This document shows, one piece after another, positions 1-13,091 of a stretch of 64,000 nucleotides of DNA. The DNA comes from Escherichia coli (GTDB taxonomy: Bacteria > Pseudomonadota > Gammaproteobacteria > Enterobacterales > Enterobacteriaceae). Below the pieces are notes generated by a model. That model was not told where the DNA came from and ran no database searches. It saw nothing but the letters and a program-made list of their open reading frames with translations. The first letter of the stretch is position 1; each line of letters opens with the position of its first letter. Where the stretch lies: the NCBI RefSeq assembly GCF_029227855.1, contig NZ_CP074356.1; one strand, 5' to 3'. Made by a program: the position numbers and the translations under genes.

Positions 1-102
1 GACACTGCGCTGGATCGTCTGATGCAGGGTGCACCGGCACCGCTGGCTGCAGGTAACCCGGCATCTGATGCCGTTAACGATTTGCTGAACACACCAGTGT
101 AA
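1..102 (+). CDS. C: 3' end of lambda gpC/Nu3 (capsid protease/scaffold), truncated by the window edge
   Basis: Frame 1 is open from base 1 and ends ...DAVNDLLNTPV with TAA at 100-102, just upstream of D. The DNA matches my memory of lambda immediately before D. Confidence 0.75.
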   Translation, partial: DTALDRLMQGAPAPLAAGNPASDAVNDLLNTPV

Positions 103-111
103 GGGATGTTT

Positions 112-444
112 ATGACGAGCAAAGAAACCTTTACCCATTACCAGCCGCTGGGCAACAGTGACCCGGCTCATACCGCAACCGCGCCAGGCGGATTGAGTGC
201 GAAAGCGCCTGCAATGACCCCGCTGATGCTGGACACCTCCACCCGTAAGCTGGTTGCGTGGGATGGCACCACCGACGGTGCTGCTGTCGGCATTCTTGCT
301 GTTGCTGCTGACCAGACCAGCACCACGCTGACGTTCTACAAGTCCGGCACGTTCCGTTATGAGGATGTGCTCTGGCCGGAGGCTGCCAGCGACGAGACGA
401 AAAAACGGACCGCGTTTGCCGGAACGGCAATCAGCATCGTTTAA
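112..444 (+). CDS. D: Head decoration protein gpD
   Basis: [12 protein letters not shown]...FAGTAISIV is essentially the lambda gpD sequence (110 aa). The ATG at 112 is preferred over the ATG at 106 because lambda D starts MTSKE. Confidence 0.95.
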
Positions 445-465
445 CCTTACCCTTCATCACTAAAG

Positions 466-486
466 GCCGCCTGTGCGGCTTTTTTT
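466..486 (+). terminator. Small hairpin plus T-run between D and E, as in lambda
   Basis: GCCGC (466-470) pairs with GCGGC (475-479), followed by T7 at 480-486. Confidence 0.5.
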
Positions 487-499
487 ACGGGATTTTTTT

Positions 500-775
500 A
501 TGTCGATGTACACAACCGCCCAGCTGCTGGCGGCAAATGAGCAGAAATTTAAGTTTGATCCGCTGTTTCTGCGTCTCTTTTTCCGTGAGAGCTATCCCTT
601 CACCACGGAGAAAGTCTATCTCTCACAAATTCCGGGGCTGGTAAACATGGCGCTGTACGTTTCGCCGATTGTTTCCGGTGAGGTTATCCGCTCCCGTGGC
701 GGCTCCACCTCTGAATTTACGCCGGGATATGTCAAGCCGAAGCACTTAGCATGGCTTTCTGAGGCTTTCGTGTAG
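500..775 (+). pseudogene. E: Major capsid protein gpE, 5' fragment (codons 1-82) running into island DNA
   Basis: MSMYTTAQLLAANEQKFKFDPLFL...SEFTPGYVKPKH matches lambda gpE residues 1-82. After base 745 the frame reads LAWLSEAFV and stops at 773-775. The rest of E resumes at 11872. Confidence 0.93.
735..744 (+). repeat. Left copy of the 10-bp direct repeat AGCCGAAGCA (attL core)
   Basis: Identical 10-mer at 11864-11873. Both copies lie on the E codons for K-P-K-H. Confidence 0.8.
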
Positions 776-872
776 CTGCTGGTTTTTACACTTAATCTTT
801 TGATAATAAAGAATAAGTTTATCTGGCGCTTTCACTGAATTTTCCTCGTTATCTGTGTGTTGCAATCATCTC

Positions 873-893
873 TGTATTGCAGCTTGTATTGCT
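873..893 (+). repeat. Tandem TGTATTGC motif (TGTATTGCAGCTTGTATTGCT), candidate arm-type Int binding site, left arm
   Basis: A near-identical 21-mer (TGTATTGCAGCATGTATTGCT) lies in the same orientation at 11768-11788. A degenerate third copy, TGTGTTGCAA, lies at 857-866. Confidence 0.5.
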
Positions 894-907
894 TTTTGGG
901 GCTAAAA

Positions 908-2143
908 ATGGCTGGCGAGAACAAACTGAGCGACAAAGCGCTTAAAGGATATCTGGGGAAACCCAGAGAAAAGCAGATCACCATTGCTGATGGAAAGGGG
1001 CTTTCTATTCGTGTGAGTACTAAAGGGGCTGTGAGCTTTGTTTTCTTCTACAGGTTAGCAGGTGGCCGGGCTGCTCCGGTCTGGCTAACGTTGGGTAAAT
1101 ATCCTGATATGTCACTCAAACAGGCAAGGGAAAAGCGCGACGAGTGCCGTGGTTGGTTGGCTGACAAACGTGATCCGCGTATCCAGATTAAGATTCAGGC
1201 TGAAGAACGCTTAAAGCCGGTCACAGTGGAGGATGCACTAAATTACTGGTATGAAAATTACTGTAAGGTGCGTCGTAAAACTCATGCTGTAACGCTTGGC
1301 AGATTTCGAAAGCATATCTTTCCCTATATCGGTCATTTGCCCGTAAATGACACTCACCTATATGAATAGCTGGACTGTTTTGACCGAATTAAACGTAATG
1401 CACCAGTTATGGCGGCGTATGTTTTTTCTGACACTAAATTAGCTCTTCGTTTTTGTCGGGTACGCCAGTACGCGACGTGTGATGCTTTAAAGGATTTGCG
1501 CATGAGTGATGTGGGGCAGATTGCAGGTAAGCGGGATCGGGTTCTGGATGAGGTCGAACTCGGCCAGCTCTGGAAGGCAATTTTTGTCGAGCCTGATTTA
1601 AAACTAATGTCTGAATACACGCGAAAAATGTTTGTGCTTTGTACAGTATTTGGATGTCGAATGAGTGAAGCCCGATTATCAGAATGGAGCGAATGGGATC
1701 TCGAAAGTTGGGTTTGGACTGTGCCAAAAGATCACTCAAAAACTGGTGTTGAAATCGTCAGACCAGTACCTGAAATTCTACGACAGTGGGTAACGGATGT
1801 TCACGAAGAGACAAAACATACTGGTTATGTGCTGGGAAGTCTGCGAATTAGAGAAAGCGTAAGCAAGATTGGGGGGAAAATCGGTAAACGTTTGGGCCAT
1901 GAAAAACAATGGTCACTACACGACCTTAGAAGAACGCTATCTACTCATCTAAGTGATCTCGGTGTTGAATTTTATGTAGTAGAACAACTGTTAGGCCATG
2001 CGCTACCTGGCGTGGCAGGTGTTTACAACCGGAGTAAGTTTATGGCTAAAAAACTGGATGCTCTGGAACTCTGGACTACATATCTCAATAGCATCGCAGC
2101 TGCTGATTCAAAAGTGACAATCCTCAAACAAAAGGCTGGTTAG
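908..2143 (+). pseudogene. int: P4-family tyrosine integrase interrupted by one in-frame amber codon
   Basis: ORFs 857-1369 and 1409-2143 are in the same frame, separated only by TAG at 1367-1369 (context LYE*LDCFDRI; TGG/Trp would fit). The C-terminal part has HDLRRT, LLGH and GVYNRS catalytic-type motifs. The ATG at 908 gives MAGENKLSDKALK. Confidence 0.85.
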
Positions 2144-2144
2144 C

Positions 2145-2375
2145 ATGAAAAAAATGGCAATTGTTGATAAAAAGGGTCTGGAGTACATTCCTAACATTGA
2201 CCGAATGATCCGTGAGAAAGAATGTCGGGAGCTAACTACTCTTGCGAACAGCACACGCTGGAAGCTGGAGAAGGAAGGAAAATTTCCTAAGCGGATCAAG
2301 ATTGGTTCCACTGCTGTTGCATATCGTCTTTCAGAAGTGCAGGCATGGATTCGAGGTGAGTGGGAAACAACTTAA
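2145..2375 (+). CDS. alpA: AlpA-family HTH regulator/excisionase-like protein
   Basis: 76 aa. IREKECRELTTLANSTRWKLEKEGKFPKRIKIGSTAVAYRLSEVQAWI fits the AlpA pattern (G-FP-P-K-G ... W-x-x-EV-x-W). The ATG lies 1 nt after the int stop. Confidence 0.8.
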   Translation: MKKMAIVDKKGLEYIPNIDRMIREKECRELTTLANSTRWKLEKEGKFPKRIKIGSTAVAYRLSEVQAWIRGEWETT

Positions 2376-2382
2376 CTATTAG

Positions 2383-3213
2383 GTGGGCATTGTGGCTATA
2401 TTTCATTATACAGATCTTTTTGGTTTGAAAGGTATATTAGACTCTAATTCTTTATGGGCTACAAACATATATTTCTTAAATGATAAAGAGGAGTCTAACC
2501 ATGGATGTGAATGCTTTCGAAATACAATTAAAATAGTTGATGACAATATCATTCCAAAAGATAAGAAAACTATTTTGCTCAAGTCTCTTGACATGTATGA
2601 GAAAGGGAGGTTACAAAAAGAAAAAGGGATTGATAAACATGTTTATAGCATCTCTTTTTGTAAGGAAAACGATAAGTTAAGTCAGTGGAGAGGTTACGGA
2701 AATAAACAGGGTGTTTGCATTGAGTTTGATGCGGATGAACTTGTGAGCTTTTCTCAAAATATTTATTTAAATTGTGTTGCACATGATGTTATATATTCAA
2801 ATAATAACGATATTACTAAGATGAGTAAGGAGTTGGGAGAGTTTTTTTCTTGTAATGGTATTAATATTAAAGAAATGAATGATCATTTTGTAACAATGGT
2901 CTCTACGTATCAATTTATATCTAAATACATCCCATTTTTTAAACATCCTAGTTTTATCGAAGAGAATGAATTTAGATTGGTATTTACTCCGTGGATGCAA
3001 ATGCCAGATGTGCACTTCAGAATAAATAATAATGGGATCATCCCTTATATCATCATTGATAATAAAGATAATAGAAAGTTACCAATTAAAAGCATTACAA
3101 TTGGCCCGACAAACGATTATGATTTCATTGAGGCTGGTATAAAAATGTTCTTGGATTCAAGAGGATTTAGTTCTGTGGAAATTAAATCCTCATCAATTCC
3201 ATTCAGGGGGTAA
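2383..3213 (+). CDS. DUF2971-like protein (AT-rich cargo)
   Basis: 276 aa with a GTG start. Motifs FHYTD...GIL, FLNDKEE, SISFC...DKLSQWRGYG..GVCIEF and KHPSFIEENEFR resemble the DUF2971 signature. The gene is markedly AT-rich compared with its neighbours. Confidence 0.6.
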   Translation: MGIVAIFHYTDLFGLKGILDSNSLWATNIYFLNDKEESNHGCECFRNTIKIVDDNIIPKDKKTILLKSLDMYEKGRLQKEKGIDKHVYSISFCKENDKLSQWRGYGNKQGVCIEFDADELVSFSQNIYLNCVAHDVIYSNNNDITKMSKELGEFFSCNGINIKEMNDHFVTMVSTYQFISKYIPFFKHPSFIEENEFRLVFTPWMQMPDVHFRINNNGIIPYIIIDNKDNRKLPIKSITIGPTNDYDFIEAGIKMFLDSRGFSSVEIKSSSIPFRG

Positions 3214-3258
3214 GGATTAACACTTTTAATCTATGATATTATAAAAATGGTGGATAAA

Positions 3259-3278
3259 GGCGACCAGAATTGGTCGCC
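3259..3278. terminator. Hairpin between the convergent cargo genes
   Basis: GGCGACCA (3259-3266) pairs with TGGTCGCC (3271-3278). Confidence 0.4.
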
Positions 3279-3344
3279 AATGTGAGTATATAGTTAGCCT
3301 TAATCAGAATACGAGGTTATCGCCTGATAGGCAATGTGAACAGT

Positions 3345-3701
3345 TCAATATTTAGGTGGTTCAACAAGAGCGTTTATCATTGCTCTCAAATTATCGCGAA
3401 CACTTATCCAAGTCTGTTCTGCTCGTTCTAACTCATCAGTGTACAACTTTAATGTTTTATCTATGCCATATGTGGCTATTAAATTTATAGCTTCTTGTAA
3501 TTTTTCAGGATTATTCCTTCTTGGGGGAGTGAATATACCACGGATTTTTCCGGTAATTAAAGCTTTACGGTGTCTACATAGAATACCTTTACTTCCTGCT
3601 GGACAATTACAAGTCATGATTAGCGAGCCAGAATCGTTTGATACAGTGACTATGTATACATCCAAACTACTGCTACTTGTTGCGAAGAATTCGTATTTCA
3701 T
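3345..3701 (-). CDS. Small SWIM-type zinc-finger protein
   Basis: 118 aa. CNCPAGSKGILCRHRKAL fits the CxC...CxH SWIM motif. Convergent with the DUF2971-like gene. Confidence 0.6.
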   Translation of the reverse strand: MKYEFFATSSSSLDVYIVTVSNDSGSLIMTCNCPAGSKGILCRHRKALITGKIRGIFTPPRRNNPEKLQEAINLIATYGIDKTLKLYTDELERAEQTWISVRDNLRAMINALVEPPKY

Positions 3702-3728
3702 GTGTTAGCTCCTTGACTTCAATTATTC

Positions 3729-3920
3729 TTATCCTTTTGGTTCAATACCGCGCCGTAGCAGCTCTTTGCGCCCTAATTCTTTAAGCCAGTTGGCTAGGCT
3801 TATGCCGTCGCTCTGCGCTTCTTTGTCGAATTGCTCTTTTAGCTCTGGAGAAATTCGCATTCTGAATTGTGGAGATTGCCCATCACCCTTAGGACTTTTA
3901 TCGCGTTTGATCGTTGACAA
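3729..3920 (-). CDS. Arc/Mnt-like ribbon-helix-helix repressor candidate
   Basis: SPQFRMRISPELKEQFDKEAQSDGISLANWLKE resembles the Arc N-terminus (PQFNLRWPREVLDLV...). I prefer the TTG start at 3920, which is preceded by AGGTGG. The ATG at 4043 in the ORF track would add a low-complexity extension that overlaps the divergent leader. Confidence 0.55.
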   Translation of the reverse strand: MSTIKRDKSPKGDGQSPQFRMRISPELKEQFDKEAQSDGISLANWLKELGRKELLRRGIEPKG

Positions 3921-3965
3921 GTGACCACCTATTGAATTAGCCTTTTCATTGTTAGGTGACCACCT
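3921..3965. promoter_or_regulatory. Two direct copies of GTGACCACCT, candidate operators in the divergent control region
   Basis: Exact 10-mers at 3921-3930 and 3956-3965. The second copy lies within the palindrome AGGTGACCACCT. The first abuts the repressor start. Confidence 0.4.
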
Positions 3966-3991
3966 TAACACGGGGGCACTTAAAAAAGCAA

Positions 3992-4022
3992 AGCCCGAAG
4001 GTGCTGGGAACACCAACGGGCT
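3992..4022 (+). ncRNA. Structured hairpin in the leader of the early operon (possible C4/CI-like immunity RNA element)
   Basis: AGCCCG-AA-GGTG-CTGGGAA-CACC-AA-CGGGCT forms a two-tier stem with a symmetric AA/AA internal loop. It lies about 40 nt upstream of an icd-like gene, the position of c4 in P1 immI. Confidence 0.3.
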
Positions 4023-4059
4023 TCTAACCACCAACGATAGCAACAGTATCGAGGTAGCT

Positions 4060-4263
4060 ATGAGAAATCATACCACACACCCGCAAGGGCGGGACCCGCA
4101 CAACCTGAATAAATACATCTGGCGTTTTATCGCCTTGAGTACGGCACAACCGCGCATGATTACCATCGAGGCCATCAGCGAACAGGAAGCCCGCCAGCAA
4201 TCCCCAACTGGCTGCGTGATGGTATTCGCCGCCCGTATTCGTCAGGAGGTGTGCCGTGCTTAA
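4060..4263 (+). CDS. Icd-like (cell division inhibitor-like) small protein
   Basis: 67 aa. KYIWRFIALSTAQPRMITIEAISEQEARQQSP...FAARIRQEV matches my memory of Icd-like proteins from P4-type satellites. GAGGT lies 5 nt upstream of the ATG at 4060. Confidence 0.55.
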   Translation: MRNHTTHPQGRDPHNLNKYIWRFIALSTAQPRMITIEAISEQEARQQSPTGCVMVFAARIRQEVCRA

Positions 4264-4441
4264 AACCTTCCGTGTATTTGCCCGAGCTGTTAACCCACTG
4301 GGCCACACAATTGGTATCACTCAGAACGTGAAGGCTGTTAATGTTCAGACGGCTATTGCTGCGGTGAGAAGCGAATCATCAGAATATGGCTTATCACAAG
4401 TCATTATTTCAGCAGTGTATGAATTAAAAGAGGTGCATTAA
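4256..4441 (+). CDS. Hypothetical protein
   Basis: 61 aa with a GTG start overlapping the upstream stop. Part of a tightly packed same-strand operon. Confidence 0.45.
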   Translation: MLKTFRVFARAVNPLGHTIGITQNVKAVNVQTAIAAVRSESSEYGLSQVIISAVYELKEVH

Positions 4442-4632
4442 TGCAGGAAATCACATTACACGAAGCCGCTGAACGTGCGCACCAGACAGAAATTATTTGC
4501 CGCCTTCTTGAGGTATACCCGAACAAAATTACAGATGCTGATATATCCGCGCTGGCGAGCCTACTGGCGCGCCTTTCGGGAAGTGTCGCTAGTTTCCTGA
4601 TTGAGGAAGAAAGTAAGCTGGTGGGGGATTAA
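4441..4632 (+). CDS. Hypothetical protein
   Basis: 63 aa. TAATG overlap with the upstream gene suggests translational coupling. Confidence 0.5.
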   Translation: MQEITLHEAAERAHQTEIICRLLEVYPNKITDADISALASLLARLSGSVASFLIEEESKLVGD

Positions 4633-4854
4633 ATGAATACAGAACGGGAAGTCTTTTTTAAATTGTTAGCATGTGCAGAAAGTTCATTAACTTTAAATAA
4701 TTCAGCAAAAGCAATATTAAATATGTGGCTTGATTGCATAAATGACAATGAAGATGCAAATATTGCTTATGGCCTGTTGTCACTTATTGATGAATCAGCA
4801 GAAAAACTCAATGACGCAATAAATAGTGCCCTGCTATCAAATAAGTCGAGTTAA
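4633..4854 (+). CDS. Hypothetical protein (AT-rich)
   Basis: 73 aa. The ATG directly follows the upstream TAA. Confidence 0.5.
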   Translation: MNTEREVFFKLLACAESSLTLNNSAKAILNMWLDCINDNEDANIAYGLLSLIDESAEKLNDAINSALLSNKSS

Positions 4855-4871
4855 GTCGAGGAATAAATAAT

Positions 4872-5171
4872 ATGGAAATGAAAAATTCTGGCTTTATTGC
4901 CAGCGGCCCCGCTCGGCCTGAATTTATGAACGGCGATATTTACCGCGATAAATACGGCGGCACGGTAACGATTAAAGGCGTGGCAGAACGGCGCATCACT
5001 TACCGCCGTGAGGGGTATAGCTATGACTGCGTGATGCCTGTTTATCAGTTCCGGCGTGATTTTTCCCTGGTATATGCCGCACCCCGCAGTAAGCCCATCA
5101 GCAGGGAAAAAGCGCGGGGAAACATCCAGAAAATGAAAAGCATGATTAACGCATTCAGGGGCAAAAAATGA
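4872..5171 (+). CDS. Hypothetical protein
   Basis: 99 aa. ATGA overlap with the primase-helicase gene. Confidence 0.55.
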   Translation: MEMKNSGFIASGPARPEFMNGDIYRDKYGGTVTIKGVAERRITYRREGYSYDCVMPVYQFRRDFSLVYAAPRSKPISREKARGNIQKMKSMINAFRGKK

Positions 5172-6919
5172 AACTGGCACCGAACTTAAAAAAACAGCCA
5201 CGCGACAGACTGACAGAGGTAATCATCTTTGCAGGTAGTGATGCGTGGAGCCATGCGAAAGAGTGGCGGGAATGGGCGGGTAAACATATTGCCGCCGACG
5301 ATGTGCCGCCTGTCGTGCTGGCTGATGAGCAACTGAAAAATATCACCGATTACCGGATCATTGATGAAGATCGTCAGTGTGTGCGTGTTTACCGCGCAGG
5401 ACATATCACAGAGCACAGCATGACGCAGATTGTTACGTTACTGGCTGTGGCTGGAGTGAAGACCGTACACGAATACGCGGGGATTACTGACACCAGCCCA
5501 GTGGATTTATCCGAGCAGTTGCCGCGACTCAAAGAGGAATGCGAGCGTGGGGAAAGTCTGGTGCTTAATCTTCCGACGAAGCAAAAGGCGCAACTTTCAC
5601 AGATGGCAGACAGTGAACGTGCACAACTACTTGCCGATCGCTTTGATGGTGTGTGTGTTCATGCAGAAAGTGAAATCGTCCACGTATGGCGCGGCGGGGT
5701 ATGGTGTCCGGTCAGCACAATGGAGCTGAGCCGCGAAATGGTGGCGATCTATTCAGAGCACAGGGCCACGTTCAGCAAACGTGTAATCAATAACGCCGTG
5801 GAAGCGTTAAAAGTTATTGCCGACCCCATGGGGGAGCCGTCCGGTGATTTGCTACCGTTCACTAATGGTGTGCTTAACCTGAAAACGGGGGAATTTTCTC
5901 CGCACTCGCCGGAGCACTGGAGCACCACGCACAATGGCATTGAGTACACGCCACCAGTAGCAGGGGAAAACATCCGCGATAATGCGCCAAATTTCCATAA
6001 ATGGCTTGAACATGCTGCAAGAAAAGACCCGCGCAAGATGATGCGTATATGTGCCGCGTTATACATGATTATGGCGAACCGCTACGACTGGCAGATGTTC
6101 ATTGAGGCCACCGGAGACGGGGGAAGCGGTAAGAGTACATTTACCCATATTGCCACCCTGCTTGCTGGCAAACAGAACACCGTAAGCGCGGAGATGACAT
6201 CACTCGATGATGCAGGAGGGCGCGCGCAGGTTGTCGGGAGTCGTCTTATCGTCCTTGCCGATCAGCCGAAATATACGGGGGAAGGCACGGGCATCAAGAA
6301 AATCACGGGAGGCGATCCCGTTGAAATTAACCCGAAATATGAGAAGCGATTCACGACGATAATAAGGGCGGTGGTACTGGCAACCAATAACGACCCGATG
6401 ATCTTTACCGAACGGGCCGGAGGTGTGTCACGCCGTCGGGTGATTTTCCGGTTCGACAACATTGTAAGGGAGGACGAAAAAGACAAGGAATTACCGGAAA
6501 AGATAGCGGCAGAAATCCCCGTAATTATCCGCCGCTTGCTGGCTAATTTTGCTGACCCTGAAAAGGCACGGGCTTTATTACTGGAACAGCGTGACGGTGA
6601 TGAAGCTCTGGCAATAAAGCAGCAAACGGATCCGGTTGTTGAGCTTTGCGCGGCGCTGGAGTTTCTGGAGGAAGCTCGTGGGCTAATGATGGGCGGTGGT
6701 GGTGACACCGTGAAGTACACGACCAGAAACAGCCTTTACCGTGTCTATATGGCCTTCATGGCATACACAGGAAAGGGGAAATGTTTGAGCGTGAATGAGT
6801 TCGGAAAGGCTATGAGGTCAGCGGCGAAAGTTTACGGATATGAATATATTACGCGAAAAGTTAAGGGAGTCACGCAGACCAACGCAACGACTACTGATGA
6901 TTGCGATGCGTTTTTATAA
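5168..6919 (+). CDS. P4/D5-family primase-helicase (replication initiator, pri-rep type)
   Basis: 583 aa. FHKWLEHAARKD...YDWQMFIEATGDGGSGKSTF fits the phage/plasmid primase P4-family C-terminal NTPase with a Walker A motif. An iteron field lies immediately downstream. Confidence 0.8.
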   Translation: MKLAPNLKKQPRDRLTEVIIFAGSDAWSHAKEWREWAGKHIAADDVPPVVLADEQLKNITDYRIIDEDRQCVRVYRAGHITEHSMTQIVTLLAVAGVKTVHEYAGITDTSPVDLSEQLPRLKEECERGESLVLNLPTKQKAQLSQMADSERAQLLADRFDGVCVHAESEIVHVWRGGVWCPVSTMELSREMVAIYSEHRATFSKRVINNAVEALKVIADPMGEPSGDLLPFTNGVLNLKTGEFSPHSPEHWSTTHNGIEYTPPVAGENIRDNAPNFHKWLEHAARKDPRKMMRICAALYMIMANRYDWQMFIEATGDGGSGKSTFTHIATLLAGKQNTVSAEMTSLDDAGGRAQVVGSRLIVLADQPKYTGEGTGIKKITGGDPVEINPKYEKRFTTIIRAVVLATNNDPMIFTERAGGVSRRRVIFRFDNIVREDEKDKELPEKIAAEIPVIIRRLLANFADPEKARALLLEQRDGDEALAIKQQTDPVVELCAALEFLEEARGLMMGGGGDTVKYTTRNSLYRVYMAFMAYTGKGKCLSVNEFGKAMRSAAKVYGYEYITRKVKGVTQTNATTTDDCDAFL

Positions 6920-6932
6920 AAAATGGCAATGG

Positions 6933-7161
6933 TTATCTACCTTGTCTACCTGACTGAAAGAAAATACTTTTATTTCAATGTATTAATGCAGGTAGATAAC
7001 TATTTTTCACTGTCTACCTGTTATCTACCTTATCTACCCATTTTTGTAGACAGGTAAGGAGACGGGTAGAGATGAGGTAGACAGCTATTTGGGGCTGTCT
7101 ACCTCCCTGAAACCCGCGCCATTACTGGCCTGATAACTAATCAGGTAGACAAGGTAGACAA
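6933..7161. repeat. Iteron field, candidate satellite origin of replication
   Basis: At least 10 copies of GGTAGA(C/T)A or its complement, in both orientations: 6933-6941, 6942-6950, 6991-6999, 7011-7018, 7021-7029, 7030-7038, 7077-7085, 7095-7103, 7144-7152, 7153-7161. AT-rich spacers lie around 6955-6990. Confidence 0.75.
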
Positions 7162-7208
7162 GGTGGTGGTGCACAAAAAACTTTTTAAACGAGGGGGTAA
7201 AAATAAAA

Positions 7209-7466
7209 ATGCACACTTCAGGAAAACTGAACAAACATATAAAGCCACATTACCGCGCCCTTGATATGGCTGAACACTGGCTAAGGGTGGCGATTAAGGC
7301 AATAGACCGCAACGCCGGGGAAGGATACGCGAAAGCACATCCCGAACTGATAAGCGCATTCATGACAACGGCGGCTGCAAACTTTGCCACGCTGACCGAA
7401 CGGGAGATTGCTGAAGCGGAGGAAGTGACAACAATCAATATTAAGTCCGGAGAGCAGGCAGCATGA
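7209..7466 (+). CDS. Hypothetical protein
   Basis: 85 aa. ATGA overlap with the SSB gene. Confidence 0.5.
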   Translation: MHTSGKLNKHIKPHYRALDMAEHWLRVAIKAIDRNAGEGYAKAHPELISAFMTTAAANFATLTEREIAEAEEVTTINIKSGEQAA

Positions 7467-7912
7467 CGGCGCAAATATCAGTTTACGGGCGGTTGGTGGA
7501 CGACCCGCAGACAAAACAGACCAGCAAGGGCACCCCCATGACGCTGGCGCGTATGGCGGTATCACTGCCCTGCAGTCAGTCGGATGACGGTCTGGCGACG
7601 TTGTGGTTATCTGTCCTGGCGTTTGGCAGACAAGCCGACGCGCTGGCAAAGCATCACAAAGGCGAACTCCTGAGCGTGGCGGGTAACATGCAGATGAGCC
7701 AGTGGACTGGACAGAACGGCGAAACGCGGCAGGGCTGGCAGGTTATCGCAGACAGCGTAATCAGTGCGCGATCGGTGCGACCGGGCGGCAAAAAAGGCCA
7801 ACAGGGGCAGGCTACTGACGCACTGAACAGAGCAAAACAACAGGCAGATCAGCAAGGAAGCCAGCCACCAGAGGGAGATAATGAGCAATGGGGAGATGAT
7901 ATCCCGTTTTAA
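7463..7912 (+). CDS. ssb: Single-stranded DNA-binding protein (SSB family)
   Basis: 149 aa. OB-fold-type N-terminus (VYGRLVDDPQTKQT...WLSVLAFGRQAD...KGELLSVAGNMQMSQW), a Gln/Gly-rich linker, and the canonical acidic tip DDIPF. Confidence 0.8.
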   Translation: MTAQISVYGRLVDDPQTKQTSKGTPMTLARMAVSLPCSQSDDGLATLWLSVLAFGRQADALAKHHKGELLSVAGNMQMSQWTGQNGETRQGWQVIADSVISARSVRPGGKKGQQGQATDALNRAKQQADQQGSQPPEGDNEQWGDDIPF

Positions 7913-7923
7913 ATATTGCCAAT

Positions 7924-7954
7924 AAAAAAAGCCGGAAAAAATAAATTTTCCGGC
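7924..7954 (-). terminator. Hairpin with its T-run only on the minus strand, between the replication and capsid modules
   Basis: GCCGGAAAA (7931-7939) pairs with TTTTCCGGC (7946-7954). A7 at 7924-7930 gives a U-tract only for leftward transcription. Confidence 0.4.
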
Positions 7955-8128
7955 ATGCTACATAAATCCCGACCAAAGGGAGTGAAGATATTAACACTAA
8001 TTGTCCGCACTGAAGTTGTCACACCAAAACTTTATACAACATTGCACTCGGTTGCATGTGTTCGCATGACAAATATCGGTGATAGCATATATCCACAATT
8101 ATTTTTAATGAATGCAAAGAGGATGCGT

Positions 8129-9169
8129 ATGGTTGATTTATATTCGCCTACTCAGCTTGTACAGGTAGTTAATGCTGTAGATGTACAAAAACAACTAAAT
8201 GCGTTGTTTACCAGTTTGTTTTTTACTCGCTCGGTAATGTTTGAATCGCGCGATATTATTCTTGATACAATCGACGATCCAAATATCCCAATTGCAGCGT
8301 TTTGTTCTCCTATGGTGGGTAGTAAAGTTTCACGTGACGAAGGGTACGAATCAAAAACAATTCGTCCAGGCTATATGAAGCCGAAAAGCAGCATTGATCC
8401 AAATAAGTTAGCTGTGCGCCCTGCTGGTGTGTCACCTGAGCAATACAATGCTTTTGGGGCGCGTAATATTAAAGTTAAACAGGCGATTGTAAATCAGGCT
8501 AAAGCTATTCGTGCACGTATTGAATGGCTTGCTGTTCAGGCAATCACAACGGGGAAAAATATCATTGAGGGCGATGGTATTGAACGTTATGAGCTGGACT
8601 GGAATATAAAACCACAAAATATCATCACTCAGTCTGGCGGTACTGAGTGGTCAGGTAAGGATAAAGAAACTTTTGATCCAAATGATGATATTGAGAGCTA
8701 CGCAGAATTTAGTGAGGGCGTCACTAATATCATCATTATGGGTGGTAATGTATGGAAGAAATACCGTTCATTCAGAGCGATAAAAGAGGCTTTGGATACC
8801 CGTCGTGGTTCTAATTCCGAACTGGAAACGGCCCTTAAAGACCTTGGTGATTCGGTGAGTTTTAAAGGGTATATGGGCGATGTTGCGATTGTTGTTTACA
8901 GCGGGCGTTATACCGACGAGGACGGAACAGAAAAACATTTCCTTGATCCTGATTTGATGGTGCTTGGCAATACGGCTCTTCAGGGGATTGTCGCCTATGG
9001 CGGTATTCAGGATCCGGAGCTAATCCGAATGGGGCTGACTAAAGCCGAACTTGCACCGAAAAACTATATTGTGCCTGGTGATCCGGCTATTGAATATGTG
9101 CAGACACATTCAGCACCACAGCCAATACCGGCCCGCATCAATCGTTTTGTTACCGTTCGCATTGGCTAA
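8129..9169 (+). CDS. Satellite-encoded major capsid protein, gpE (lambda E) family
   Basis: 346 aa. The C-terminal half aligns by eye with lambda gpE: ITQSGGTEWSGKDKETFDPNDDIESYA, LDTRRGSNSELETALKDLG, YMGDVAIVVYSGRY, MVLGNTA, PGDPA. The N-terminal half is much more diverged. The ATG at 8129 has AAGAGGA 6 nt upstream. The longer ORF from 7916 has no homology support. Confidence 0.88.
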   Translation: MVDLYSPTQLVQVVNAVDVQKQLNALFTSLFFTRSVMFESRDIILDTIDDPNIPIAAFCSPMVGSKVSRDEGYESKTIRPGYMKPKSSIDPNKLAVRPAGVSPEQYNAFGARNIKVKQAIVNQAKAIRARIEWLAVQAITTGKNIIEGDGIERYELDWNIKPQNIITQSGGTEWSGKDKETFDPNDDIESYAEFSEGVTNIIIMGGNVWKKYRSFRAIKEALDTRRGSNSELETALKDLGDSVSFKGYMGDVAIVVYSGRYTDEDGTEKHFLDPDLMVLGNTALQGIVAYGGIQDPELIRMGLTKAELAPKNYIVPGDPAIEYVQTHSAPQPIPARINRFVTVRIG

Positions 9170-9178
9170 GGGGGAGCA

Positions 9179-9520
9179 ATGGCTACTCATTACACTGAAC
9201 TCATGGCTGGCACTGAAGCACTGGTGACTACGCTGGGGATATTTTCAGCTAATAAAGGGGTAATTCCTGCATTTACGCCACTGATGCAGGAAGATGCAAC
9301 AGGTGCACTGGTGGTATGGGATGGTTCGAGCGTAGGTAAAGCGGTTTATGTTTCCGCTGTACAAATCGACACCGCGAAAAAAACACAGGCTCAGGTCTAT
9401 AAGACAGGTGTCTTAAATGTTGATGCTCTGAACTGGCCTGAGTCTGTTAAAGAACTGTCAGTAAAGGTTGCAGCGTTTGTTGGCTCAGGTATTTCTGTTC
9501 AGCCGCTGGCTCGTGTGTAA
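9179..9520 (+). CDS. Satellite-encoded head decoration protein, gpD family
   Basis: 113 aa. Shares TPLM, LVxWDG, YKxG, LxWPE and AFxGxGIS with lambda gpD in the same order. Confidence 0.75.
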   Translation: MATHYTELMAGTEALVTTLGIFSANKGVIPAFTPLMQEDATGALVVWDGSSVGKAVYVSAVQIDTAKKTQAQVYKTGVLNVDALNWPESVKELSVKVAAFVGSGISVQPLARV

Positions 9521-9531
9521 AGGGGGATACA

Positions 9532-9915
9532 ATGCAGAATGATTACAATGACCTTAAGCCAATTGCCGAAATGATGTACCCGAATCAAGCTGTAGAGGAA
9601 TTAAAAGCTATCGCTGACAAAATGTGTTTAAGCGAGCGCCTTGTTGATATGAATCAGGTGATGGAAATTACAACCCTGAGTCGTCGTACACTGCTAAACC
9701 TTGAGGCTAGTGGAGAGTTCCCGGAGCGTGTGCAGGTTACGGAAGGGCGTAAGGCCTGGTATTTAAGTGAAGTGATCGACTGGATAAATAATATTCCTCG
9801 CGCTTCTGAATATTGCCGCGTACCTGTCCCAAAAAAGCCAGATGCGGCGCTATGCCTCAAGATTGAGCGTGTACGCCGCAATGCACGGGATGGTCGCTAT
9901 AAGCTGATTGGTTGA
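9532..9915 (+). CDS. AlpA/MerR-like winged-HTH protein immediately upstream of cos
   Basis: 127 aa. MNQVMEITTLSRRTLLNLEASGEFPERVQVTEGRKAWYLSEVIDWI fits the AlpA pattern. It is the last gene before the cos site. Confidence 0.65.
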   Translation: MQNDYNDLKPIAEMMYPNQAVEELKAIADKMCLSERLVDMNQVMEITTLSRRTLLNLEASGEFPERVQVTEGRKAWYLSEVIDWINNIPRASEYCRVPVPKKPDAALCLKIERVRRNARDGRYKLIG

Positions 9916-9922
9916 TGAAATT

Positions 9923-9948
9923 AGGACCCGCTCTGGCTGGCGGGTCCT
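9923..9948 (+). terminator. Hairpin after the capsid module
   Basis: AGGACCCGC (9923-9931) pairs with GCGGGTCCT (9940-9948), followed by TTCC (a weak T-run). Confidence 0.45.
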
Positions 9949-9954
9949 TTCCGG

Positions 9955-10140
9955 CGATCCAGAACGTTACGGGGCGTCAGGCGCGCAGTTTTTCGCTATT
10001 TGTGAAAATTTTCCTGTTTAAGGCGTTTCCGTTCTTCTTCGCCGTAACTTAATGTTTTTATTAAAAACACCCCCTAAAAAGAAAGGAAACGACAGGTGCT
10101 AAAAACAGGCTTTTTGGCCTCTGTCGTTTCCTTTCTCTGG
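9955..10140 (+). other. cos: Lambda-type cos site (cosN plus cosB R3-I1-R2-R1) with no adjacent terminase genes
   Basis: CGTTACG|GGGCGTCAGGCG|CGCAGTTTTTCGCTATTTGTGAAAATTTTCCTGTTTAAGGCGTTTCCGTTCTTCTTCG...GAAAGGAAACGACAGGTGCT...GGCTTTTTGGCCTCTGTCGTTTCCTTTCTCTG is collinear with my memory of the first ~180 bp of lambda. The R-site repeats CGTTTCC lie at about 10023-10034, 10081-10095 (inverted) and 10121-10135. The predicted 12-nt end at 9972-9983 matches lambda GGGCGGCGACCT at 7 of 12 positions. Confidence 0.85.
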
Positions 10141-10479
10141 TTTTGTTGCCATCCGTCGCGGTCTATCACCAGAAAAAATCTTATCCCTGAGTTGAATCAG
10201 GCCCTATTCAGAAGCGGCCAATAACGCGCCGCTAGCTTCACTTCATAGTTATGGCCTACTTCTGCGCCATTGCAATTGCTTTATGCGCCTTGATGGTGGA
10301 ATATAGAGCAAGCAGTTTGCGAATAACAAAGTTTCATATGTTTTTTGCTGTGTGGCTAGACAACTTTACAGCAGAGTTTTGTGTCAGTTCTTTATGTGTG
10401 CAAGCAAGCTTGAGGGGGAATTACTTCTGGCTGTATCTTTGCTTAAGAACAGCAATAATTTAATCATAAGGAAATGTAT

Positions 10480-10506
10480 ATAAGCCTGATTAAATTTCAG
10501 GCTTAT
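10480..10506 (-). terminator. Hairpin just downstream of the TIR gene
   Basis: ATAAGCCTGA (10480-10489) pairs with TCAGGCTTAT (10497-10506), 8 nt past the stop of the minus-strand gene. Confidence 0.5.
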
Positions 10507-10513
10507 TGAAATG

Positions 10514-11656
10514 TTAACTCCTTATTAGAGAGTAAATTCCATCCTCTTTAAGGAAGTCTATTACTTCAAAGAATGAGATAAAGAATTCCCAAGAACCAAA
10601 AGCATATGCATGAATTTCGTAAGGTGCAAAATGGAATCTAAATCCATCACTATTTATTGTGAACGAGTCTAAGTTACTATCCATGATACCCGTTGCAAAC
10701 GTACTAATGTCGTCCTCACTTGGTTTTTCACCAGTTTTCTCCCAAAATTCACGAGCTGATTCAGAGATTATTTTTTGTTTTATCTTATTAATCGCTTCTT
10801 GCTCTTTCCCTTCGGTAAATACATCCCATAAACTAAATTTGTATGCGTAGTCATCCTTGGTTATTACGAAATTACTAGTTTCAAAATGACTGTTAGGGTG
10901 TGCTGCTCCCGCACCATACCAATGTACGGAATGAAGGATGCTCATGACATTTTCGTTACAGTATGAGATGTTATAACTTTCATTATAGGAACTAGTGTAA
11001 GTGTGTTTATATTCTTCATCCCAATATGGTGTTCCTGGCCATAGTGATGTGCGTTCAGAAAAAATATGTAAAGCCGCTTTTCCTGAAAAGTAATCACTAA
11101 TGAGTTTTGCTGATTTCGGTAATGTATGGCTTTCAATTCTTGGATATGCTATTTCAATTTCATGCCCTGGGATCTTGTTATATTCTTCCTTGAAAACCTC
11201 GCTGCTAAAGTTAAATGGCCCATAAGTGATACCTTGAGATATTTCAAGTTTTTGTTGCGATGCTGCTAATCTTAAAGATCTAGATAAAATGTCCCAACCA
11301 TCATTTCTCTTAAAATCAATGAATTGGAGCTTGCTTGATATGTAGGCGGGTACTTCGCAATCATCAATAAGTAATGGTATCACGAACACATCATCTGGTT
11401 TGTAATACTTTAGTTTATCAATGGCGTCATTTATTTCGCGGCGAATATAACCATTTTTCTGAGTGCTCACTTTGCTAAGGATAAGGATTATCAAGTTTGA
11501 ATTAGCGAAGTTTTTTTGGATTTCATAATCCCAGTTTACGCCAGCGGGTATATCTTTTACATCCATCCAAGGGGAATATCCTCCACTTTTTAGCCTTTCA
11601 TAGATTTCTTCAGTTATCGTTTCATCTTCTTTTGCATGAGCAAGAAAAATTTTCAT
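10514..11656 (-). CDS. TIR-domain protein fused to a DUF4163/DUF3298 (RsiV-like) C-terminal domain
   Basis: 380 aa with no signal peptide or TM segment visible. The N-terminus (MKIFLAHAKEDE...GYSPWMDVKDIPAGVNWDYEI...SNLIILILSKVSTQKNGYIRREINDAI) fits the TIR_2 pattern, including the conserved Glu position. The C-terminus has IEIAYPRI... and HWYGAGAAHPNSHFETSNF...FSLWDVF, resembling the DUF4163 and DUF3298 motifs. AT-rich. Confidence 0.7.
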   Translation of the reverse strand: MKIFLAHAKEDETITEEIYERLKSGGYSPWMDVKDIPAGVNWDYEIQKNFANSNLIILILSKVSTQKNGYIRREINDAIDKLKYYKPDDVFVIPLLIDDCEVPAYISSKLQFIDFKRNDGWDILSRSLRLAASQQKLEISQGITYGPFNFSSEVFKEEYNKIPGHEIEIAYPRIESHTLPKSAKLISDYFSGKAALHIFSERTSLWPGTPYWDEEYKHTYTSSYNESYNISYCNENVMSILHSVHWYGAGAAHPNSHFETSNFVITKDDYAYKFSLWDVFTEGKEQEAINKIKQKIISESAREFWEKTGEKPSEDDISTFATGIMDSNLDSFTINSDGFRFHFAPYEIHAYAFGSWEFFISFFEVIDFLKEDGIYSLIRS

Positions 11657-11767
11657 TGAATATTCCTTTATAATTTAACTAATTAAGTGAAGGAGGCTTT
11701 ACTTGGCTGTGTTAGAAAAAATTCGGTTTGTTTTTTGTACGATGCCAAGAAGGCTTTTCCCTAACCA

Positions 11768-11788
11768 TGTATTGCAGCATGTATTGCT
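11768..11788 (+). repeat. Tandem TGTATTGC motif (TGTATTGCAGCATGTATTGCT), candidate arm-type Int site, right arm
   Basis: Matches 873-893 at 20 of 21 positions, in the same orientation. Confidence 0.5.
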
Positions 11789-11863
11789 ACGTAATTCTGC
11801 ACCCTCTCATTTATAAAATAAATCTCTGTTAAATCAAGTATCTTTTTTCTATTTGACTCATGT

Positions 11864-11873
11864 AGCCGAAGCA
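11864..11873 (+). repeat. Right copy of the 10-bp direct repeat AGCCGAAGCA (attR core)
   Basis: Identical to 735-744. Followed by TGAGGTGAATCCGCAG, the continuation of lambda E (H-E-V-N-P-Q). Confidence 0.8.
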
Positions 11874-12699
11874 TGAGGTGAATCCGCAGATGACCCTGCG
11901 TCGCCTGCCGGATGAAGATCCGCAGAATCTGGCGGACCCGGCTTACCGCCGCCGTCGCATCATTATGCAGAACATGCGTGACGAAGAGCTGGCCATTGCC
12001 CAGGTCGAAGAGATGCAGGCAGTTTCTGCCGTGCTTAAGGGCAAATACACCATGACCGGTGAAGCCTTCGATCCGGTTGAGGTGGATATGGGCCGCAGTG
12101 AGGCGAATAACATCACGCAGTCCGGCGGCACGGAGTGGAGCAAGCGTGACAAGTCCACGTATGACCCGACCGACGATATCGAAGCCTACGCGCTGAACGC
12201 CAGCGGAGTGGTGAATATCATCGTGTTTGATCCGAAAGGCTGGGCGCTGTTCCGTTCCTTCAAAGCCGTCAAGGAGAAGCTGGATACTCGTCGCGGCTCT
12301 CATTCCGAGCTGGAGACAGCGGTGAAAGACCTGGGCAAAGCGGTGTCCTACAAGGGGATGTATGGCGATGTGGCCATCGTCGTGTATTCCGGACAGTACG
12401 TGGAAAACGGCGTCAAAAAGAACTTCCTGCCGGACAACACGATGGTGCTGGGGAACACTCAGGCACGCGGTCTGCGCACCTATGGCTGCATTCAGGATGC
12501 GGACGCACAGCGCGAAGGCATTAACTCCTCTGCCCGTTACCCGAAAAACTGGGTGACCACCGGCGATCCGGCGCGTGAGTTCACCATGATTCAGTCAGCA
12601 CCGCTGATGCTGCTGGCTGACCCTGATGAGTTCGTGTCCGTACAACTGGCGCAATCGTGGCCCTTCGGGGCCATTTTCTCTCTGTGGAGGAGTCCATGA
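11872..12699 (+). pseudogene. E: Major capsid protein gpE, 3' fragment (codons 82-341), with loss of the normal stop
   Basis: HEVNPQMTLRRLPDEDPQNLADPAYRRRR...DPDEFVSVQLA matches lambda gpE 82-341. The expected TAA is CAA (12652-12654), so the frame runs 15 more codons (QSWPFGAIFSLWRSP) to TGA at 12697-12699. Confidence 0.93.
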
Positions 12700-13091
12700 C
12701 GAAAGATGAACTGATTGTCCGTCTCCGGTCGCTGGGTGAGCAACTGAACCGTGATGTCAGCCTGACGGGGACGAAAGAAGAACTGGCGCTCCGTGTGGCA
12801 GAGCTGGAAGAGGAGCTTGATGACACGGATGACGCTGCCGGTCAGGATACCCCTCTCAGACCGGAAAATGCGCTGACCGGACATGAAAATGAGGTGGTAT
12901 CAGAGCAGCCGGATACCATGATTGATACGGCTGCTCTGGTCACGGTCGTGGCACTGGTGACGCTGCATACTGATGCACTTCACGCCACGCGGGATGAACC
13001 TGTGGCATTTGTGCTGCCGGGAACGGCGTTTCGTGTCTCTGTCGGTGTGGCAGCCGAAATGACAGAACGTGGCCTGGCCAGAATGCAATAA
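12696..13091 (+). CDS. FI: DNA-packaging/head-completion protein FI
   Basis: MTKDELIVRLRSLGEQLNRDVSLTGTKEELALRVAELEEEL...MTERGLARMQ is close to lambda gpFI. Confidence 0.92.
   Translation: MTKDELIVRLRSLGEQLNRDVSLTGTKEELALRVAELEEELDDTDDAAGQDTPLRPENALTGHENEVVSEQPDTMIDTAALVTVVALVTLHTDALHATRDEPVAFVLPGTAFRVSVGVAAEMTERGLARMQ

Follow-up and report, generated by a model that had tools for sequence, protein, structure and literature searches.

A lambda-type cos site with a non-canonical cohesive-end sequence in a satellite island embedded in an Escherichia coli prophage

A 64-kb stretch of Escherichia coli DNA (64,000 nucleotides of contig NZ_CP074356.1, hereafter the window) opens within a lambda-like prophage whose major capsid gene, E, is interrupted by an island of 11,129 bp (745-11873). 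The island carries a complete lambda-type cos site, consisting of cosQ, cosN and cosB, in which the elements bound by the small terminase subunit (TerS) are identical to those of lambda, and the 12 nucleotides at the cohesive-end position (GGGCGTCAGGCG) are not. We consider it likely, with a probability of roughly 0.7, that this is a working packaging site cut by a helper terminase of lambda specificity and that the altered overhang is a tolerated, inherited cosN allele. Judged by its sequence, the island is a helper-embedded phage-inducible chromosomal island (HE-PICI) of the published 11capE / E:Phage_cap_E type; an earlier first-pass annotation of this DNA, made from the letters alone, had recognised the cos site but missed both the location of the island within the prophage capsid gene and its membership of a published family.

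The cos site was characterised by comparison with phage sequences. A BLAST search with 9940-10146 against 50,697 phage records matched 102 of them, the best being PhiR46_1 and YDC107_1 (92.3% identity, E = 6e-80), with lambda, DE3 and HK629 at 87.9% (E = 6e-67); chance resemblance to a phage cos is ruled out by the first of these values. When the site is aligned with four others, those of DE3/lambda, PhiR46_1, an Stx1 phage and a resident prophage, there is not a single insertion or deletion from cosQ to R1, so that lambda bp n corresponds to window position 9971+n. The distance from cosQ to cosN is that of lambda (cosQ lies about 30 bp upstream of the nick), and the spacing from cosN to R3 is exactly that of lambda (Table 1). 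The nick region reads CGTTACG (9965-9971), then GGGCGTCAGGCG, then CGCAG, and the ACG and CGC that flank the nicks are unchanged. Within the 12-mer 7 of 12 positions are identical to lambda; bp 1-5 are the same, the mismatches fall at bp 6, 8, 9, 10 and 12, and further differences follow at +16 and +18. Similarity to phage cos sites ends at about 10146, which is 16 bp short of the expected Nu1 start codon (about 10162). The first-pass annotation is thereby borne out in its call of a lambda-type cos with a conserved cosB and three R elements, in its coordinates (R1 ending at about 10137-10139) and in the 7/12 match of the overhang; the span it gave to the site was correctly placed, although it left out cosQ (9942-9948).

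No homolog of Nu1, of an island Nu1-like protein, of gpA, of W or of the portal was found by tblastn within the 64-kb window. The statement that no terminase gene accompanies the site can therefore be extended to the whole window, and the present copy is, as had been proposed, a satellite cos with a cosB of lambda specificity that lacks both terS and terL (the gene for the large subunit). The window opens 33 codons before the end of prophage gene C, and the resident Nu1 and A genes lie just to its left. Downstream of cos, the plus strand holds only an open reading frame of 70 amino acids (10251-10463) without a Pfam match, followed by a minus-strand TIR gene. In many sibling islands the same cos leads directly into a Phage_Nu1-family gene, and the absence of a terminase gene is thus a trait of this copy rather than of the family. 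Packaging by helper Nu1 and gpA would be the natural reading of a lambda-type cosB without a terS or terL of its own, and Tommasini et al. 2023 presume packaging by the helper terminase for the type element, 11capE (PMC10111431).

To place the site among its relatives, cos sequences were collected from IMG/VR by a pattern scan from cosQ to cosB (at least 120 loci), by a scan for the ...GGCG/CGC right half (80 loci) and by anchoring on the island integrase with 10-kb flanks (68 loci), which puts island and helper cos in one locus; complete-genome relatives were also sampled for cos sites. Individual loci are cited by L numbers. The 12-mer GGGCGTCAGGCG is present in 35/35 islands with lambda-type R elements, which represent 21 distinct cos haplotypes. 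No haplotype departs from the others in cosQ or the flank to its left, anywhere in cosN, or in the R2 core AAAAGAAAGGAAA. In the R3 and R1 cores (the latter CG/CATTTCCTTTCTC) only one position differs, and it does so in the minority of cases; the I1 core GTAACT..TGTT.TTA is largely conserved. Three stretches vary: the cosQ-cosN interval of 7 bp, the 6 bp that follow cosN and, chiefly, the spacer between R2 and R1, which is almost unrecognisable in L216 and L218. Such a conservation footprint is the pattern of a site in use and not of a relic, and indicates purifying selection.

The constant module of the family comprises an E-like gene, a D-like gene, an AlpA-like gene and cos, and the content after cos varies between three configurations. 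The first, that of the window copy, has a lambda-type cosB with nothing terminase-like after cos and diverse cargo. The second combines a lambda-type cosB with a Phage_Nu1 gene 72% identical to lambda Nu1 (for example L002), the N-terminal DNA-binding segment being almost identical to that of lambda; the window sequence departs from this type of sibling at a breakpoint at about 10146. The third has a different cosB and a 183-amino-acid Phage_Nu1-family gene, about 35% identical to Nu1, whose product is assigned to Phage_Nu1 by Pfam and gave no PDB match. Alternative-cosB islands of this kind carry GTCAGGCG (n=8), the canonical lambda 12-mer (n=4) or GGAAGGCG (n=2) in the integrase-anchored set, and five more with a canonical cosN were found among the matches listed (L052, L073, L084, L103, L145). 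Island cos sites are also mosaic, with breakpoints adjoining cosN, as a comparison of window 9955-10146 with L211, L215, L141 and others shows: CAGAACGT or TGACAGGC stands on the left, CGCAGT, CGCAGA, CGCGGA or CGCGGG on the right, and cosB is either window-like or nearly identical to that of lambda or the helper. This mosaicism could reflect recombination, or cohesive-end joining of island and phage DNA.

The difference from the resident helper is best seen in composites, that is, in loci where the island and the prophage that embeds it are visible together. The canonical 12-mer predominates at lambda-like cos sites, and of 25 composites with both sites readable the resident prophage carries it in 22, with one each of GGGCGACGACCT, GGGCGGAAGGCG (L145, where the island is canonical) and GGGCGGCAGACT (a Kosakonia locus). 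Island and helper 12-mers differ in 22/25 composites and match in three (L244, L263 and the Kosakonia locus L260). The two closest relatives of the window island with a readable resident cos, L001 and L203, are among those that differ, both having a canonical resident site. The proposal that the island 12-mer might simply mirror the cos of its resident helper is not supported by these counts; for the window itself the comparison rests on sibling composites, its own resident cos being outside the window. Where both sites are visible in E. coli composites, the resident prophages have a lambda-type cosB and a lambda-type Nu1, and the helper cosB in the Kosakonia composite is diverged lambda-like. 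In this composite (Kosakonia sp. S29, contig FONB01000025; L260 / L286, L296), where the integrase is 88% identical to that of the window island, helper and island share the non-lambda 12-mer GGGCGGCAGACT but their cosB regions differ.

Neither terminase subunit was found to follow the cosN allele. Not one column of 62 full-length (641-amino-acid) gpA sequences segregates with cosN type, an identical 641-amino-acid gpA adjoins a canonical cosN in L068 and GGGCGGAAGGCG in L145, and an identical Nu1 adjoins the canonical 12-mer and GGGCGTCAGGCG. The only gpA found beside GGGCGTCAGGCG (L187) is 99.5% identical to one beside a canonical cosN. The possibility of a distinct gpA for each cosN allele was rejected on these grounds, there being no co-varying residue and identical proteins across alleles. 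This agrees with experimental work on lambda-like phages, in which cosN differences at bp 7-12 are common (N15 at 9 and 12, Gifsy-1 at 8, 9 and 11), right-half variants are nicked efficiently by lambda TerL with no measurable effect on cleavage, burst sizes and yields are independent of the cosN allele, and ends mismatched by 2 nt remain viable but lower the yield of viable phage about 4-fold (Feiss et al. 2015, PMC4669245). The island resembles N15 and Gifsy-1 in concentrating its variation in bp 7-12. TerL is moreover not highly sequence-specific and depends for its placement on R3-bound TerS, the spacing being critical (Murialdo and Feiss 2022, PMC9026076); R3 and this spacing are both exactly kept in the island cos. 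Four of the five overhang changes fall in the tolerated half and only G6T is outside the data of Feiss et al.; the G6/C7 pair at the centre is likewise disrupted in the GGAAGGCG allele, given for PhiR46_1 and about 50 lambda-like contigs. By this comparison the overhang difference is within the known tolerated variation of cosN, and is common to some phages.

The distribution of the 12-mers beyond the islands is consistent with such tolerance. Among the matches listed, about 50 lambda-like IMG/VR contigs have GGGCGGAAGGCG at their own cos, where the adjoining Nu1 is 93-100% and gpA 99-100% identical to the lambda protein, and it accompanies Nu1/A in the isolated phage record PhiR46_1. By comparison GGGCGTCAGGCG is found mostly in islands, and also at the own cos of a few lambda-like prophages (L132, L202/L148, L187), which have a lambda-type right-arm context and a Nu1 98-99% identical to that of lambda; a donor or an alternative helper of the L132/L202/L187 type is possible. 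The island 12-mer context is carried by no isolate in INPHARED, and a scan of one genome per species gave 23 sites, none with the island 12-mer. About 10 of these 23 are exact lambda sequence in non-enteric assemblies and likely to be spike-in or vector. Exact lambda cos or right-end sequence is present in L274, L275, L283, L287, L291, L292 and L294 (Oceanobacillus, Neobacillus, Shewanella, Raphidiopsis, Aeromicrobium, Alicyclobacillus and a Chromatiales metagenome-assembled genome); in several of these assemblies the sequence breaks right after GGGCGGCGACCT, which looks like contamination with lambda control DNA or vector.

Taken together, a route for the island can be proposed. Upon induction of a lambda-like helper the island would excise and replicate. 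Helper TerS (Nu1, of lambda specificity) would then bind R3, R2 and R1 of the island, probably with IHF at I1, and would position helper TerL (gpA) to nick the top strand at 9971/9972 and the bottom strand at 9983/9984, leaving 12-nt 5' overhangs of sequence GGGCGTCAGGCG. A packaging run would be ended by cosQ and cosN of the next cos. Cyclisation should be unaffected, because both ends of a molecule would come from copies of the same cos. The altered 12-mer would have been inherited within the island lineage with no switch of packaging specificity, possibly after capture from a phage of the L132/L187 type.

Several points weigh against this proposal. The cos-to-cos length usually needed is 75-105% of lambda, and the 11.1-kb island is far below it; it would have to be packaged as multimers (4 x 11.1 = 44.5 kb) or in small capsids, perhaps assembled from the E and D homologs of the island. 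The terminase genes of the window's own resident prophage lie left of the window, and the Ec-U3 prophage, which occupies the same chromosomal site in another strain, has a phage-21-type cosB and TerS and is not expected to use the island cosB. The 12-mer is fully invariant in the 35 lambda-R-type islands despite their mosaic flanks, which pure neutrality does not predict; these islands are close relatives and so are non-independent samples. An amber codon in the integrase suggests, finally, that the present copy cannot excise and that its site may be idle.

The invariance of the 12-mer could instead mean that it is kept by selection, which we regard as improbable. With the same cosB as the helper, non-annealing ends would prevent helper-satellite chimeras, cross-element terminase runs or end-joining of co-injected DNA leading to non-cyclisable molecules. 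The physical premise of this idea, that satellite and helper ends might be incompatible, had been raised in the first-pass annotation and is sound: with 5/12 positions mismatched, island and canonical helper ends should not anneal productively. An adaptive role was not supported, as right-half differences are common and show no co-variation with the terminase. The two cos sites of a composite face the same way at a distance of about 15-16 kb. Without excision, packaging that began at the island cos and finished at the following helper cos would give non-cyclisable ends; such a run would be of packageable length, about 45 kb, if the composite measures about 61 kb. The co-orientation and this run length speak for selection, as does the contrast between GGGCGTCAGGCG in 35/35 lambda-R islands and a canonical or nearly canonical 12-mer in 23/25 resident helpers. 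The two E. coli islands whose cosN is canonical like that of their helper (L244, L263) both have an alternative cosB with their own Nu1-family gene, and among the E. coli composites sampled at least one of cosN and cosB always differs from that of the helper. The flanks of cosN are mosaic and the 12-mer is fixed, and a 2-nt mismatch already has its roughly 4-fold cost (PMC4669245). Nevertheless, the islands are 99-100% identical in integrase and a single founder cos explains the pattern. The Kosakonia island and its helper have the same variant 12-mer, chimeric packaging carries no clear fitness cost to the island, and intramolecular cyclisation would be favoured whatever the ends of the other element. 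If the selective explanation were true, neither cyclisable helper-satellite chimeras nor end-joining after co-injection would be expected. That private sticky ends form a second, so far unrecognised layer of packaging identity in lambda-like systems, beside cosB/TerS specificity, is improbable as well.

A true helper other than the resident prophage is similarly unlikely. The island cos would then be cut efficiently only by the terminase of lambda-like phages that themselves bear GGGCGTCAGGCG, and the resident prophage would be no more than an integration target. Phages of this description can be pointed to, as GGGCGTCAGGCG stands beside a Nu1 98-99% and a gpA 99% identical to those of lambda in L132, L202/L148 and L187. 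However, the gpA of L187 has no diagnostic residues with respect to the 99.5% identical gpA from a canonical cosN, the same Nu1 stands beside both alleles, and lambda TerL has no cosN specificity for right-half changes (PMC4669245). No isolated phage in INPHARED carries GGGCGTCAGGCG, and induction-dependent excision of 11capE from its embedding prophage has been reported (Tommasini et al., PMC10111431). Least probable of all is that the site is a decaying, non-functional relic of a captured cos-nu1 module whose nu1 was replaced by the TIR gene: in siblings a 72%-identical nu1 does follow cos, the breakpoint of the window is exactly where nu1 would start and the integrase of this copy is amber-truncated, but all functional subsites are intact and identical to lambda, the R cores, cosQ and cosN are held across haplotypes with diverged spacers, which points to purifying selection, and a lambda-type cosB without terS is common among siblings with an intact integrase (L001, L203, L204, L222-L224 and others).

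The reading of the site as a working cos cut by a helper terminase fits what has been published on the family. HE-PICIs were described by Tommasini, Mageeney and Williams with Eco567.11capE as the type element. This island of 11 kb lies in gene E of a prophage at the icd site, has a 10-bp att block and carries a capsid gene of its own; the authors noted a 258-bp stretch 90% identical to the helper cos (PMC10111431). Helper-dependent excision, replication and transfer of this element are reported there, from quantitative PCR and sequencing. The window island is like 11capE in its 10-bp att block, its own diverged E homolog, its zones for int/AlpA, primase/SSB and late genes, and its cos-like stretch, about 90% identical to that of the helper and at the same position in the island; the type element also has no terS. 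What sets it apart from 11capE is the TIR-DUF3298 cargo downstream of cos, together with the amber codon in its integrase. The cos call is already published for 11capE, in a paper that never mentions cosN (PMC10111431) and describes neither the fixed non-canonical 12-mer nor the mismatch between it and the resident cos. It appears to be undescribed that the lambda-cosB islands of the family all carry one non-canonical 12-mer and that the prophages embedding them almost always carry the canonical one. The same appears to hold for the three cos configurations (a lambda cosB lacking terS, a lambda cosB joined to the 72% nu1, and an alternative cosB with the 35% Nu1-family gene).

Compared with lambda, the island cos has the same order and spacing of subsites, identical cosQ and R3/R2/R1, the same cosN bp 1-5 and the same nick flanks. 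It is unlike lambda in that the overhang differs at 5/12 positions including bp 6, no Nu1/A follows, and the site belongs to a satellite, being preceded by an alpA-family gene rather than by a phage right arm. Cos PICIs of the EcCICFT073 type similarly have a helper-like cosQ and cosN, lambda-like helpers and a dependence on the helper terminase for cutting (Fillol-Salom 2018, 2019; Murialdo and Feiss 2022). Theirs is, however, a cosB unrelated to that of the helper, with rpp in the terS position retargeting TerS, and they are found at chromosomal sites and not inside the helper; the window island instead keeps the helper cosB, differs in cosN and has an empty terS position on the plus strand. 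An Rpp-type cos PICI was rejected on two counts, R3/R2/R1 being identical to lambda and to the resident-prophage cos and no rpp following cos. A capsid-forming PICI (cf-PICI), which would encode terminase, portal, protease and capsid proteins of its own and borrow just the tails of its helper, was rejected as well: of such a set the island has an E-like and a D-like gene and no more, neither a terminase nor a portal homolog was found in the window, and the one protease homolog in the window is the remaining 33 codons of the prophage's own gene C. Satellites of the SaPIbov5 type combine the cos type of their helper with a homolog of the helper major capsid protein (Ccm). They differ from the window island in being Gram-positive and in having an unrelated cos sequence.

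Table 1 Features of the island and of its cos site (window coordinates)
Feature	Position	Strand	Remarks
Complete lambda-type cos (cosQ-cosN-cosB)	9940..10146	+	102 phage-record BLAST matches; gap-free alignment; co-oriented with prophage late genes
cosQ heptamer GGGTCCT	9942..9948	+	same as lambda; unchanged across 21/21 island cos haplotypes
cosN, overhang-equivalent 12-mer GGGCGTCAGGCG	9972..9983	+	collinear with lambda GGGCGGCGACCT
Predicted nicks	9971/9972 (top strand), 9983/9984 (bottom strand)		
R3 AGGCGTTTCCGTTCTT	10021..10036	+	critical TerS-binding element; identical to lambda, with the spacing of lambda bp 50-65
A/T-rich I1 region (putative IHF site)	10037..10079	+	between R3 and R2; about 90% identical to lambda
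R2, inverted R element (plus strand AGAAAGGAAACGACAG)	10080..10095	-	identical to lambda
R1 CTGTCGTTTCCTTTCT	10121..10136	+	identical to lambda
attL identity block AGCCGAAGCA	735..744	+	inside prophage gene E
attR identity block AGCCGAAGCA	11864..11873	+	matches the 10-bp block reported for 11capE
Island integrase	908..2143	+	one in-frame amber codon, TAG 1367-1369, at W154 (from translation)
gpE-like major capsid gene	~8129-9169	+	Pfam Phage_cap_E 2e-41; 42% identical to prophage E
gpD-like decoration gene	9179-9520	+	Pfam HDPD 4.5e-15; 38% identical to prophage D
Second AlpA-family winged helix-turn-helix gene, 127 amino acids	9532..9915	+	Pfam Phage_AlpA 7.5e-9; PDB 8c3t (AlpA protein) 2e-9
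TIR + DUF3298 cargo gene, 380 amino acids	10514..11656	-	Pfam TIR_2 2.8e-21, DUF3298 1e-10

The borders of the island are defined by the att block AGCCGAAGCA, which occurs only twice in the window, at the two island junctions. Gene E is split at 744/11874, and joining 500-744 to the sequence from 11874 onward gives back its open frame. To the left of the island are the end of gene C, then D and the opening 82 codons of E, and to the right the rest of E followed by FI, Z, U, V, G, T and H...J. The four-zone layout of HE-PICIs (integration, Bro, replication and late) is present. The integrase and an AlpA-family gene (2145-2375) make up the integration zone; next come DUF2971, a SWIM gene on the minus strand, an Icd-like gene and DUF4222, and then the replication zone with a D5_N/DUF5906 primase and SSB. 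The late zone runs from the gpE-like and gpD-like genes through the second AlpA-family gene to cos, after which the TIR-DUF3298 gene follows on the minus strand. A search of window positions 1-13000 against Rfam gave no family at gathering score, and hence no immunity RNA of the C4/isrK type.

Codon 1367-1369 of the integrase is TGG in three sibling islands and TAG in the window copy. The island is probably unable to excise, which would keep prophage gene E permanently split and may leave the cos of this strain's copy idle. An intact sibling integrase recovered the 68 IMG/VR loci at 88-100% identity, several of which, at 90-92%, were without a cos match. The inward-reading arrangement of int then AlpA was seen in this set where both flanks are visible and the helper cos is readable.

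The immediate surroundings of cos have features of their own. The second AlpA-family gene stands immediately upstream, at -435 from cos in most siblings read (-396 in a diverged subgroup) and whichever cosB type is present. Its product has a 35-amino-acid N-terminal extension, and candidate roles for it are late activator, excisionase or a cos-related function. Between this gene and cosN lies a perfect 8-bp inverted repeat, GGACCCGC-N8-GCGGGTCC (9924-9947), whose 3' arm overlaps cosQ. The repeat is island-specific, phages having another sequence upstream of cosQ, and is kept in siblings, where an A/G change retains a wobble pair. It was not called a terminator by a simple scan, and a scan for promoters and terminators around cos gave no signal above shuffle expectation. 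On the other side the slot from cos to attR (10150-11860) is a cargo hotspot. Its TIR version is common to 15 complete E. coli genomes, with PADLOC matches of the TIR-DUF3298 protein at the level of the TIR domain only, and the TIR gene occupies the place where sibling islands hold a nu1-like terS. Sibling cargo consists of a nu1-like terS with DUF2971, a 311-amino-acid hypothetical protein or a restriction endonuclease.

The prophage locus is itself variable. The C/D/E flanks in the window do not discriminate between prophage types. The best prophage match (97.8%) is that of E. coli Ec-U3, which has an IS66 element in gene E and no island; its cos region (L273 1159-1400) combines a canonical cosQ/cosN with the phage-21-type cosB (CATGTCGG repeats) and a 21-like TerS. 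TerS specificity is thus mosaic at this locus, since the head genes of Ec-U3 are otherwise about 98% identical to those of the window. Window positions 39001-64000 (ompC, dcm-vsr, dgcQ and fli genes) are 100% identical to E. coli JNEC-KY178, and the composite prophage is a recent or variable insertion in the lineage, because JNEC-KY178 has no prophage at the site.

These results place the locus in a published satellite family and its changed sticky end within the known tolerated variation of lambda-like cos sites. The composite is a natural system in which two co-oriented cos sites with the same TerS specificity and different cohesive ends lie on one replicon, which makes it convenient for testing the weight of the cohesive ends in packaging, cyclisation and chimera formation. 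The packaging route suggested here would be unlike the retargeting of the Rpp type, in that the satellite keeps the helper cosB and brings its own capsid and decoration proteins.

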